From assembly GCA_951406725.2 (NCBI GenBank), contig OX597838.1:30814001-30878000 (forward strand): a stretch of 64,000 nucleotides of DNA. The letters are read 5' to 3'. Source of the DNA: Octopus vulgaris (Eukaryota). The notes beneath the pieces were generated by a model that was not told the origin of the DNA, did not search any database, and saw only the letters and a program-made list of their open reading frames with translations. Below are positions 3,227 to 47,343 of this stretch, piece after piece. Within the stretch, counting starts at the first letter, position 1. Each line of letters starts with the position of its first letter. Position numbers and translations under genes: made by a program.

Positions 3227-3318
3227 TTACTCAGAGTTTTACGTAACTGTTCATCAGACATTTCTAATAACACATCTGACTGATGAACATAGGAACGTTT
3301 ACGTGAAACTCTGAGTAA
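3227..3318. repeat. Inverted pair of degenerate hammerhead motifs
   Basis: Plus strand: CTGATGA 3280-86 ... GAAACTCTGAGTA 3305-17. Inverted copy TTACTCAGAGTTTT...TCATCAG at 3227-3257. Stem I is decayed. Confidence 0.45.
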
Positions 3319-3763
3319 TAGTTTGTGAAAGTTTTCGACTTCAATAAAATGGCGTATGTGTGTATTCACATATATACACAGGGTTTCATAGAAAACCGAA
3401 TATTTGGTAAATTCCATGTAAAGACTATCGTGTACAATGGTATGATGGAAGAAGTTTTCTGGCCTCAAATTGGATCGAAGGAGTGAGAAAAACAAGAAAT
3501 TAAAGATGGGGAATTAAGTACCAGAAGAAATACGGAGAAATCTTGTTACAAGTAGACACGGAAAACATAAGTGTGCTATCATGGAATTATATGTCTACTT
3601 GTGAGTGTGTATGTGTGTGTGTGTGTATGTGTGTGTGTAAAGTAATGTGTGTGCGCGAGCATGTGTGTGTAATAACAGAGAGGAATATACTTACACAAAT
3701 GTTCATCTAAACAGACGAACATATGTATCAGCTCTTTCATACACATACATACATTCATAAGCA

Positions 3764-5607: not shown

Positions 5608-5885
5608 TAACATCGTCTGTTTTTCCGTCCTTGCTTCGTATACATTCGATGCTTTTTTCCAAGGAATCTAATGCTCTTAGCTTAGTTTTTCCTTGGGGCT
5701 GGCCAGATTAGAGCAATCTCAAGATTAATCAGTCGAAATTGCGAGGATGATCCGGTTCTTAACTGAAGATAAAAGGCTTCGAATGACCCGTCCGTGTTTT
5801 TTTTTGTATCGTTTATCTGGATGTTTTGTTGTCCCCTTTTGTATCACCTAGTTGTCCGGATGTTTTGCGTTCTGGTCCCATTTTG
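5603..5885 (+). mobile_element. Family A repeat copy 2, with reordered hammerhead (5642-5785)
   Basis: GGCTG 5697-5701, GCAATC-TCAAGA 5713-24, CAGTC-GAAATTGC 5730-42, TCTTAA-CTGAAGA 5757-69. Confidence 0.7.
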
Positions 5886-6030: not shown

Positions 6031-6144
6031 ACAAACTGGGACAAGAACGAAAAACATTTTGAAGACGATACAAAAAACACGGACGGGACATTCGAAGCCT
6101 TCAATCTTCAGTCAAGAACCGGATCATCCTCGCAATTTCGGCTG

Positions 6145-6148
<4 letters not shown>
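6028..6148 (-). mobile_element. Family A repeat copy 3, 5'-truncated and inverted relative to copy 2
   Basis: The reverse complement reads TAATCAGCCGAAATTGCGAGGATGATCCGGTTCTTGACTGAAGATTGAAGGCTTCGAATGTC. Confidence 0.75.
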
Positions 6149-8620: not shown

Positions 8621-8945
8621 CCCACTCTTCTATCCTATTACTCTGTCACTCTCTCTTCCTCACTCCTGCTTCCTTGCTCACGTAGCTCCCACGTGACCAT
8701 CGGCAATCTTTCTTTGTTTCCGTTGTAAATGGAATAAGGAAGACGTTTGTCTCCTGTCCAAGCTTGATTTACGCGTTCGTCACCACAACCTCGTTTAGGC
8801 TTAGTAGCCCTTCCTGTTTGTTTTCACTGTCCTGTTAGTGTTACCTATTTTGACCCACCACAAAATCCCAAATTTGATTTAATTTGCTTTGCGGGTACAA
8901 CTGTTTTATCGAAAGCATATATTGTTGTTAAATGCTCGAAATATA

Positions 8946-14508: not shown

Positions 14509-16464
14509 CATACGTGTGTGTATGTGTGTCTGTGTGTGTATGAGAGAGAGAAAGGGTTGAGATACCAACATTTAAAAGACATGGATTTAAAAAATTCTTC
14601 TTATAAAACGGTTTCCCTTCATTGTTTTGCAATGCGGGAAAAAATTAAAAAATAAAAAGCAAGGGAAACCTCGACAAAGGCGGGGAAATTCCAACAGCTC
14701 TTTCCGAAAGCCTGCTTTTCCAGTTTCCAGTAGGGTGGGGCACTATCAAAATATTATTTATTGTATTTTTGGTTTTGAAGAAAATGTATTTTTTCACAAA
14801 GGTTCACCAACTTTTGCCAAAACTATGTCAGTGAAGTAAAGACTTTCTCTAAACGCAGTAAAACCTATAACATATTCAGAACCCAATTCCAGAAAATTAT
14901 CACTGTTCTCTTTGAGCATATAAAAGACAAATTTAGGCGGGGCAAAATGGGTAAGACAAGACAAAGTGAATACGCCCTTCCAGTTCTCCAGAACTAAATT
15001 TGAAAAGAGTCATGCACATAAACATCCATCCTTAGACATCAGAAAAATCAGAAATGGGATCTAGGTTTTTTTTCATTCGTAAAATATGCATTTTTAAAAG
15101 TCTGAAAATCGGCTATAATAATGTAGTCTTCCAGTCTCATTGCTATGAAAGTATGATGTTGTGGAGTGAAAAATTGGAGGAAAATGTTACAGAGGTTTAA
15201 AAATTGGAAAAAAAAAATTTTCTGCGTTTAGCGGAGTGGTGAAACTTTAAGGTTGTACCCTGTGAAATTTATAGTTTAGTGTCTGTGACATAACTTGTTT
15301 ATTGTAGGTTCATAAATAAAACAGAAATACCTAATAAAATCAACATGTATCATTTTACTGTTTCTTTTGTTTCTTCATTCATTGTATGTTATTACTATCG
15401 TTTAAAATTTGTTATATTAATATATTTGTCTGCAAGTGTTTACTTTATGCGTATTTCATATTATAAATATCTGTCATGTATTTGTGTACATCATTAATAT
15501 ATAGATGCATGCGTGTGTGTGTGAAAAGGGGGCGTCTGTCTCCATAACTCCAAAGTTGAGTAACGTTTTCATGCTTGGATTTGTAAACTACGATAAGAAT
15601 GAAACTGGTCAACAAAGAATTTGTCCCAAAAGCACCGAAAATATATAATATACTAACACACAGAAAAATTAAAACAAAACACGCGGGTGAAAAGAATCTT
15701 GTGGTGCGAAGAATCAAGTGTGAAAAATTAACATAGAACAGCGTGTGGCACAGACAACTGTGGTTGTCATGGTAACAAGCTGCTAATGACAATTTGTGTG
15801 TTGATTGGCTAAAATTACCCAAATTTCCCAACTTTAATTCCAAATAACATCAGATTATTTAATTTACAAGATAATGAAATTGGTTGATCGTAATTAAAAT
15901 TCAGAGTTGCATCGACGCACCAACATTGAAAGCAATTTGAACAAAATTAAAGGGGGCTCATTTTGCGAATGAAAAAGACTAGATCCCAGAAATGCATCAA
16001 AATTCAAATATCTTGGTCAAATGAAAGTGGATTAAAGAAAATTCGCACGTAATATTAAATCAATGAAAATCAACTAAATCTAAAAACTCAACATAAAATA
16101 TTTTTTATATCTTCTTCACTAAAAATTATCCAGAAATTTTATTAGTTACCTCAATTACAAATATGGTCAAATTTGAGGGAAATTTTCTTGAAAATAGTAC
16201 CTGTCACCTATGTTTCAAACTTTCAACTTCAACAACAACTATGTAAACTATACTGGCCAATTTTTACTCCCAAAGACGATGCAATGGTACAAAATGAAAG
16301 AAAATAACAAGAAATAAGAAATTATTCATTTTGACCCAGTTACCAATTTTGCCCCACTTCAATTCGTCTTAACTTTCAGGAAAATGAATATTTCTTTATG
16401 AAATTGCTTACAAATATACCTCGGACTATGTAGATTCCAAGCATATAGGATTTTTGGAGAAATA

Positions 16465-17500
16465 TGAACCCTAACATTCAATTTACAATGTAATATACCA
16501 AAGAACAGCTCGCTTTCTTAGATATTATGATAAAAAAGTCAACAACCAAATTATAACTGACATTTATCATAAACCAACAGACTCGAAGTAATATCTCCTA
16601 TTTAGCTCATGTCATCCGAAACACATCAAAAGAAACGTCTCCTTTAATTTAGTAAAAAGGATTTACACAATAATGTCTGATAGAAATACTCGGGACCTTC
16701 GTCTTCAAGACCTCAGAACAACACTAACTAAAAGACAATATCCACCCTCACCTATAGACGATGGAATTAAGCGTGCTAAGACATTAGACATTAAAACACT
16801 AAGGGCAACAAAACGTAACACAACACACACCTCATCTCAAAACTCTACTGTATATATATCAACTCACAACCCTAGAAACAATGAGGCATACAGCACTACT
16901 GTGCAAAATCTACCTGTGCTCACCTAGAGATCCAAAAATGAACAACATTCTGAAAATACATAAATTCACCAAATGCAAAAGGCAACACAAATCGCTAAAA
17001 AGACTTTTAATAAATGCGAAGCTTTACACACCAACCACGAAACCAACAGTTTAAAACTGTGGATGCCCAAACTATGGAACATGCCACAATCTACTGGAAG
17101 GTTCGGAATTCCTATTCAAACAAGGAGAGAGGTTCACAATTTAAACCAATTTCACTTGTGCTCCCGAGAATCTAGTTTATAACTTTCTCAGGATGTGGAC
17201 ATAACTACAGAAGACAGACAATTATGACACTGAGACGGAGAACCATACTACATAAGGAATAAATCCAGTTCCCACAATACAGACAAATCCCTTTTTCTAT
17301 TTTTCTATTTGATGAATCATTCATTCATAAACTTCTCCACACATAACATGGACTAAAATCTTCTTAAAGAAAATACGAAATTACAATAATTTCACTGTCA
17401 TGATTTGCAAAAGCGAAACTGGTCGACAGACACAATATAAAATATATTAAAAAATATATTAAAACTACATAAAGTGTGTGCATCTTCCTTCTTTTACTTT
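16465..17500 (+). mobile_element. Penelope-like element remnant (RT C-terminus, Cys-rich linker, GIY-YIG start, 3' UTR)
   Basis: Translates with stops and frameshifts to NPNIQFT..LAFLD..TDIYHKPTDS.YLLFSSCHPKHIK and CGCPNYGTC..NFTCAPENLVY. A decayed HHR lies at 17395-17429 (CTGTC..GAAACTGGTC-GACAG). Confidence 0.85.
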
Positions 17501-27030: not shown

Positions 27031-27176
27031 AAAAAGAATATATATATATAATACTGTAAATAAGAGCCGGGTTGCGTTCCGTTCCGTTACTTGATAAAAA
27101 TACATCGTAAATAAACAACGAGAGATGAAAAACGCACGGGTATATTGAGGGTACAACCGGACGGGAAACAAACACA

Positions 27177-27308
27177 GAGGGTCTCTAATTCTTCAGCAGT
27201 TATCAATTATCAACCACATTGGTAATACTGTTTCGCACCATTAATGGTAAGACTGAGGACTTCCTATATTGGTGGTGCCTGCGAAATTCGCAGAGAATGT
27301 TGGGCCTC
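27177..27308 (-). ncRNA. Candidate reordered hammerhead, family C (inverted partial partner at 27393-27540)
   Basis: Minus strand: AUUCU, hairpin CUGCG/CGCAG, GCACCA ... CUCAGU-C-UUACCA-UUAA-UGGUGC-GAAAC ... UGAUAA-CUGCUGA-AGAAU. The partner copy supplies ACUGAG and CCGAUGA. Confidence 0.65.
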
Positions 27309-27545
27309 AATCAAACAAAACAAAACAGAGTGGACATACGAAAGTAAAAAAAAAAAAAAAAAAAATGAAATTTAAGACGATGAACCGTCTTAAATATGGG
27401 AAGTGCGAGACTGAGTTTTACCATTTTGGTTGATAACCGATGAAGAATTAGGGACCCTCTGAGTCTGTCTCCCATCCGGTTGTACCCTCAATATACCTAT
27501 GTGTTTTTTTTTTACCCCTCGTTGTTTATTTACAATGCATTTTTT

Positions 27546-27945
27546 CCAAACGACCTGAACATTAGCTTCAAGGTTCATCCAAGACTGAGACCACGGGCCA
27601 TACGTCCCCTGCCCAATTCAAGATCACAACATACATGTACACTGCAACATAATTTCTTTTCCCCCAACAGGCCCTGCACTATTTAACATTGTCCCGAAAG
27701 AGATCAAAGAGGAAAAGGATCCCATCAACTTTAAACGGAGTCTGGATAGATTCCTTCAAGGAATACCAGATAAGCCACCCATAATTGGATACAACTCACC
27801 CAACAAAAACTCACTACTTGAATGGACCATAAACAAAACTTGACTTAAACAGGATTCAAATAATCCTATCAGGTGGTGCTATTAAGTTAGACATGGCCTG
27901 GACCAATCTTTGGTCGAAACATATCTAAGTTTATCTAAGTTTATG
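27546..27945 (+). mobile_element. CR1-group LINE 3' end
   Basis: GPALFNIVPKEIKEEKDPINFKRSLDRFLQGIPDKP..NSLLEW, a 3' stem-loop and a (TATCTAAGTT)2 tail. The tail recurs inverted at ~32330-32400. Confidence 0.8.

Positions 27946-28944: not shown

Positions 28945-28945
<1 letters not shown>
28761..28945. repeat. Near-perfect palindrome of a PLE-type terminus containing an HHR 3' half
   Basis: The arms mirror around ~28850 and carry GAAACATATGTC (palindromic stem III plus GUC). Confidence 0.75.
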
Positions 28946-29498
<553 letters not shown>

Positions 29499-47032: not shown

Positions 47033-47059
47033 ATAATATATGTATGCATATGTATTACC

Positions 47060-47343
<284 letters not shown>

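Follow-up and report, generated by a model that had tools for sequence, protein, structure and literature searches.

We consider it very probable, judging from the sequence, that a short locus of Octopus vulgaris consists of two decayed non-coding copies of a Penelope-like element (PLE), the family consensus of which is predicted to be a self-cleaving, non-circularly permuted hammerhead ribozyme with a split core, likely inherited from Naiad-type retrotransposons. The locus lies in a stretch of 64,000 nucleotides (contig OX597838.1, positions 30,814,001 to 30,878,000), hereafter called the window, and coordinates given without a locus name refer to it. The motif is a real feature that is predicted to cleave and to work like the type-SGC and type-CSG hammerheads. 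Likely too, if with somewhat less confidence, is the wider proposal that Naiads possess a ribozyme after all: those of cnidarians, cephalopods, nematodes and spiders would have non-circularly permuted hammerheads, with the core of one branch split at A9/G10.1 and rebuilt via a four-way junction. Each octopus genome would hold thousands of copies of this arrangement, the seventh natural one for the hammerhead, and it could cut across tandem units.

The first copy (27035 to 27385, minus strand) was delimited by blastn against the loci and the consensus of its family, designated family B; it is 5'-truncated and its 3' end lies at a (TA)n run. The second copy (27385 to 27548, plus strand) is inverted, 5'-truncated and internally deleted and stands head-to-head with the first (self-blast, 78.5% over 149 nt; start at about 27385 placed by eye). 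On the minus strand, the motif opens with the 5' strand AUUCU of a closing helix, P0 (27298-27294), followed by the hairpin CUGCG/CGCAG (27293-27279), which sits flush between P0 and G10.1. The stem II 5' strand GCACCA (27278-27273) starts from G10.1 and is displaced upstream of the substrate. Next comes the 5' strand (27264 to 27272) of a helix that connects stems I and II at their far ends, the 'I' helix of Eckert. Block S is composed of CUCAGU (16.x strand of stem III, 27257-27252), C17 (27251) and UUACCA (1.x strand of stem I, 27250-27245). A UUAA linker (27244-27241) leads from stem I to stem II, and block G (27226 to 27240) contains UGGUGC (3' strand of stem II, 27240-27235), GAAA (27234-27231) and the 15.x strand of stem III. 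The 3' strand of the joining helix (27214 to 27222) carries two substitutions in this copy. It is followed at 27193 to 27213 by the 2.x strand of stem I, which contains a 7-nt duplication, and the core (UGAUAA, 27205-27200; CUGCUGA, 27199-27193, with A6 changed from the consensus CUGAUGA). Directly after A9 stands the 3' strand of P0, AGAAU (27192-27188). Of the inverted copy, the 3' half of the motif is left (27403 to 27448, plus strand), with GAGA for GAAA, the stem III, joining helix and stem I strands, the core and P0 (ACUGAG, 27410-27415; UGAUAA, 27431-27436; CCGAUGA, 27437-27443; AGAAU, 27444-27448). A LINE 3' end, which we take to be CR1/L2-like, directly adjoins the element (27550-27945, plus strand).

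The first-pass annotation had described a hammerhead of reordered architecture from these same elements, all of which were found where it had placed them; its predicted cut between 27251 and 27250 is correctly positioned, C17 being 27251. The architecture that it drew was a composite of two incomplete window copies, and it is restored in the consensus of 30 genomic loci. The decay that it had noted is evident against this consensus. In the minus copy, 2 nt are missing from the 15.x strand of stem III, stem I has a mismatch, and the 7-nt duplication and CUGCUGA are present. The entire substrate block and the stem II 5' strand are absent from the plus copy, which reads GAGA and CCGAUGA. An intact hammerhead core (CUGAnGA, GAAA, U16.1-H17) is found in neither copy. 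Going by hammerhead mutagenesis, changes of this kind should inactivate the ribozyme, and both window copies are most likely inactive. The 150 of 402 Rfam matches that were listed at E<=1 include no hammerhead and are microsatellite-driven miRNA matches; this is as expected, because the order is pseudoknotted.

A search of the 2.8 Gb genome with the minus copy returned 198 candidates, 40 of which were scored and showed 76-90% identity. In the majority consensus of 30 genomic loci, CUGAUGA, GAAA and stems I-III appear in the order II(5')-substrate-UUAA-II(3')/GAAA/III-I-CUGAUGA. The annotation had expected a consensus rebuilt from genomic copies to regain the features lost in the window and, on the sequence side, this is what was found: CUGAUGA, GAAACUGAG and a 6-bp Watson-Crick stem I (UUAUCA/UGAUAA) are restored. 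The 'CC/GG crossover' pairing described there is present but longer, CC/GG being the start of the helix CCAAUAUGG/CCAUUUUGG in family B. Core and stems are intact in only 5 of 59 family B sequences, and the junction score of this family was equalled in 77 of 300 shuffles and is not significant.

The family B unit is approximately 700 nt long, pyrimidine-rich and without ORF (tandem spacing ~693 nt at locus L135), and an ORF search around families A and B revealed no element ORF. Its copies are 5'-truncated and occur as partial head-to-tail tandems, as inverted 5' copies and with (TA)n ends. Partial tandems, inverted 5'-truncated copies, (TA)n ends and the absence of an ORF are traits of non-autonomous PLEs and retrozymes, and in the available part of PMC8557442 an anatomy with 5' truncation, partial tandems, inverted copies and (TA)n is given as typical of Penelope-like elements. 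Near the unit boundary, families A, B and D show a splice-donor-like word, GTAAG, followed by a long pyrimidine tract (L034:995-1005, L016:~1065, L231:~1085); families A and B have CACGTGAC in common. The arrangement is similar to what has been described in Penelope as a 5' intron and an internal promoter.

The split order is spread far beyond family B. A pattern of linker, GAAA and downstream CUGAUGA had 5164 matches in the genome as compared to 561 for the reversed pattern, and in about 21 of the first 30 loci obtained with it the architecture can be recognised by eye. With a three-stem descriptor, 105 matches (66 distinct) were found in 818 kb of fetched loci, a motif-enriched set; the same sequences read in reverse yielded none. 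Family A, said by the annotation to keep the same order with different helices, does so in the window at 2114 (plus), 5638 (plus) and 6070 (minus). In all, the window holds five more split-core copies (2114-2283 plus, 5638-5804 plus, 6070-6148 minus, ~8812-8945 plus and 47057-47147 plus; family A three times, C, and A2-like).

Nineteen family consensuses were seeded from the genome, from copy sets that may count one genomic place twice; 14 could be parsed, and the other five, with 1-3 copies each, could not. In 13 of the 14 parses, P0 and the hairpin are flush (gaps 0,0,0), family A having gaps of 0,1,2. The linker between stems I and II measures 1-5 nt throughout the 14 parses, and the joining helix has 5-10 bp in 13; in family D it was parsed automatically as 3 bp, with a longer bulged helix visible by eye. 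The strand following the core pairs with stem II over 0-2 bp in 10 parses. In families C, C2, D and D2 it does so over 4-5 wobble-rich bp, the perfect upstream strand also being present. All 14 parsed consensuses have CUGAnGA, GAAA and U16.1-H17, with C, A or U and never G at N17. When the flanks were shuffled, at most 5 of 300 shuffles reached the junction score in 10 of the 14 families; weaker scores were obtained for A (20/300), D2 (8/300) and A6 (45/300).

Pairing was further tabulated for 12 families, D2 and A6 being left out as doubtful. Helix cells pair in 290 of 300 cases, a figure partly built in, as the parser that located stems I-III selects for pairing. Double-sided changes are seen at 23 of 25 helix positions in these families, which are related, so that the cells are not independent events. 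The invariant pairs, G10.1-C11.1 and A15.1-U16.1 (12 of 12 families), are the hammerhead's own conserved pairs. Given parser bias and family kinship, the covariation supports the fold but does not translate into a probability. Identity between lineages is 48-70%. Nested RNA folding, which cannot represent the pseudoknot and prefers other structures in several families, was excluded as support.

Young families have kept the motif whole, with core and stems intact in 34 of 42 sequences of family A, 13 of 15 of D and 10 of 14 of E. Family A comprises 2895 candidates (best 98-99% identity) with a unit of 776 nt; the candidates number 3803 for family D and 1286 for family E. The large young family D (L224-L237) has the core CUGAAGA. 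Family E shows the most compact form (L116:479-545, plus strand), with a GAAA-capped hairpin and very short links between stem III and the joining helix (4/0 nt).

The connection to Naiads is provided by a further family, N (1173 candidates), in which the split motif has the same orientation as broken PLE reverse transcriptase frames and lies 0.8-1.1 kb behind them. The reverse transcriptase (RVT_1 E 2e-4, below the Pfam cut-off) lies at the C-terminus with no endonuclease after it; an N-terminal GIY-YIG was looked for, and all copies fetched are truncated or interrupted upstream of the reverse transcriptase. As compared by eye with the available records, the family N consensus matches the Naiad_Obim 3' end over the motif and is one letter off Naiad_Ovul. 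Likewise, the letters of stems I and II in family E are those of an unnamed Naiad passage near part 12 of the PMC8557442 supplement, in the portion at hand. No intact young Naiad was present among 150 of the 200 candidates scored, the longest open frame being 300 aa.

In the accessible text of PMC8557442, Naiads are stated to be without canonical hammerheads, and 9 of 54 are marked HHR_core and 8 HHR_half_core, Naiad_Ovul being among the latter; within that text, we ascribe these marks to the presence of the permuted fold. By eye, 15 of the 54 published Naiad consensuses carry the split (9) or the CSG (6) form, in a survey of a partial source that covered the CUGAUGA places and, for every other core variant, its first 10 places, with some places hidden by line breaks and several passages left unparsed. 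The split form was seen in Obim, Ovul, Amil, Aacu, Anas and four unnamed passages near supplement parts 9, 12, 12 and 19, the unsplit CSG form in Naiad-1, -2 and -3_Nbra, Smim and two unnamed passages near parts 13 and 15 (PMC8557442 supplement). The UUAA linker is kept even in the Acropora Naiad records included in this material. In the surveyed part of the same supplement, two bivalve Naiad records end in UAA...CCG-UUCCAAGG-CGG. This ending recalls what we take to be the consensus of the twister ribozyme, and bivalve Naiads may use another ribozyme class.

Family B and family N share 55% identity over the motif, which is background, and no evident sequence outside the core; no PLE reverse transcriptase was found beside the motifs of families B, A, D, E or F in the fetched loci. 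The link between family B and Naiads rests on the shared architecture and the insertion pattern. A Neptune/Penelope-like ORF with reverse transcriptase and GIY domains beside an A4 copy (L095) was considered as the partner and rejected, since (TA)n lies between them and the sense is opposite. The window has a relative of this ORF, a PLE reverse transcriptase that is broken and resembles GIY-YIG at its C-terminus (16461-17298, plus strand).

In the fold that we propose, stems I, II and III would form the standard core as a double pseudoknot, with the short linker and the joining helix (1-5 nt and 5-10 bp) keeping stems I and II next to each other. P0 and the hairpin would stack as one nicked helix, in which A9 and G10.1 could meet at a four-way junction without a direct bond. 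Cutting of tandem transcripts at C17 would release unit-length RNAs (~700 nt in family B, ~776 nt in family A), linear or circular, which may serve as templates for a PLE reverse transcriptase in trans. Unit-length release from tandem transcripts has been proposed for other PLE hammerheads, according to the available part of PMC8557442. Among 246 core-bearing copies, 77 are partial, and their 5' truncation points show no sharp pile-up at the cut site; 21 partial copies start within -5 to +14 of the cut versus ~7 per 10 nt upstream, in a biased sample.

A serious, if less likely, alternative is that the motif acts chiefly between two units of a tandem transcript or a dimer, where one unit would supply the stem I strand, CUGAUGA and the P0 strand, and the next the hairpin, stem II, substrate and GAAA. 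The ribozyme would then be of CSG order, with a unit of ~600 nt looped out by P0, and only tandem or circular RNA could be cut. Loci of B, A, D, N and F indeed often contain partial tandems in which a core lies upstream. Further, this arrangement removes the short link between stem III and the joining helix, which at 4/0 nt in family E implies a strained monomer fold. In the records surveyed by eye, the CSG order is found unsplit in Naiads of nematodes and spiders, and other PLE hammerheads are reported to cleave as dimers. Most copies are single, however, and all elements of the fold lie within ~120 nt. The short link is moreover no obstacle to type-SGC RNAs, which with 0-44 nt at the equivalent position between stem III and the joining helix cleave during transcription (PMC10085705).

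That the conserved structure is not, or is no longer, a nuclease appears unlikely. It would then be a fold that the reverse transcriptase or endonuclease of the PLE recognises, with hammerhead-like letters retained. The motif does lie at the 3' end of the element, where priming signals are expected, and the function of hammerheads in EN+ PLEs was noted as unclear by Craig et al. (PMC8557442, in the part available). Yet the catalytic letters, H at N17 and the two invariant pairs are kept in all 14 parsed consensuses while the helices turn over. A chance arrangement in an AT-rich repeat is highly improbable: although each window copy is damaged, neither has the full fold and the Rfam matches listed include no hammerhead, the reversed-pattern, reversed-loci and shuffle controls, the double-sided changes across families and the equal order in cnidarian and cephalopod Naiad consensuses of the records surveyed speak against it, and cross-family covariation already contradicts it, in line with the annotation's argument from natural covariation.

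If a self-cleaving split form is confirmed, the hammerhead would have an arrangement beyond the six that Eckert et al. considered possible, and non-circular permutations would extend from environmental RNAs of unassigned origin to the genomes of animals. The chief feature reported to set Naiads apart from other Penelope-like elements would disappear, and the view of hammerheads as dispensable passengers of PLEs would be undercut. The claim is compact enough for testing with a transcript of 110-150 nt. As descriptors for types I-III and for the six block orders miss the split form, ribozyme counts in invertebrate genomes are probably too low.

Among known hammerheads, types I, II and III have a circular strand order and no core pseudoknot, whereas the octopus substrate lies between the strands of stem II. 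Ordinary forms are also found in the window: a minimal type I hammerhead at ~29020 in two tandem units of ~240 nt, a retrozyme-like PLE repeat (28945-29363, plus strand), and an inverted pair of Penelope-type hammerhead cores (3250-3330, both strands), both recognised by eye. Non-LTR retrozymes (bioRxiv 10.64898/2026.07.22.740005) are, in the portion available, likewise non-autonomous and PLE-derived, with one hammerhead per unit and in tandems; those elements and the pLTR of PLEs (PMC4209133, PMC7229834) have type I hammerheads found by type I descriptors, while the octopus units have the split permuted form. The pseudoknot hammerhead PDB 8YDC, as described in the accessible part of PMC11300833, likewise owes the stability of its core to a pseudoknot near stems I and II. 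There, A9 and G10.1 are connected and the order is a circular permutation, neither of which applies to the octopus form. With the Naiad PLEs, so far as PMC8557442 was available, the octopus families share (TA)n targets, 5' truncation, partial tandems and inverted 5' copies, whereas family B has no coding capacity and shows no visible descent from family N.

Closest to the octopus motif are the permuted hammerheads of Eckert et al. 2023, who divided the ribozyme into the blocks C (stem I strand, CUGAnGA, stem II strand), G and S, assumed these to be uninterruptible and considered six block orders possible (PMC10085705). Non-circularly permuted SGC and CSG hammerheads exist and cleave at the predicted site; type SGC has a linker of ~3 nt from stem I to stem II and a helix joining the other ends of these stems (PMC10085705). 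The examples come from metatranscriptomes and metagenomes, and in known genomes only one bacterial GCS candidate is given in the part of PMC10085705 at hand. In the published literature outside most subscription journals, we found neither a permuted hammerhead in Naiads nor a split block C, nor a tested hammerhead with helices inserted at A9/G10.1. The descriptors of Eckert et al. could not find the split form, as their blocks were assumed to be uninterrupted. The annotation had described the reordered architecture in two families; the families are many more than two, the motif corresponds to the ribozyme-like motif at the 3' end of Naiad-type PLEs, and because the S-G-C reordering was already published and cleaves, the new part is the split at A9/G10.1.

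The octopus form keeps the cyclic S-G-C order, the short linker between stems I and II, the joining helix and the full core. Block C is not intact, and for this reason the split form is not type SGC as defined: the stem II 5' strand lies upstream of the substrate, and P0 and the hairpin bridge A9 and G10.1. The split order results when the ends of an SGC ribozyme are joined and the ring is reopened between A9 and G10.1. The examples of Eckert et al. are environmental, whereas the split form resides in an animal genome in thousands of copies.
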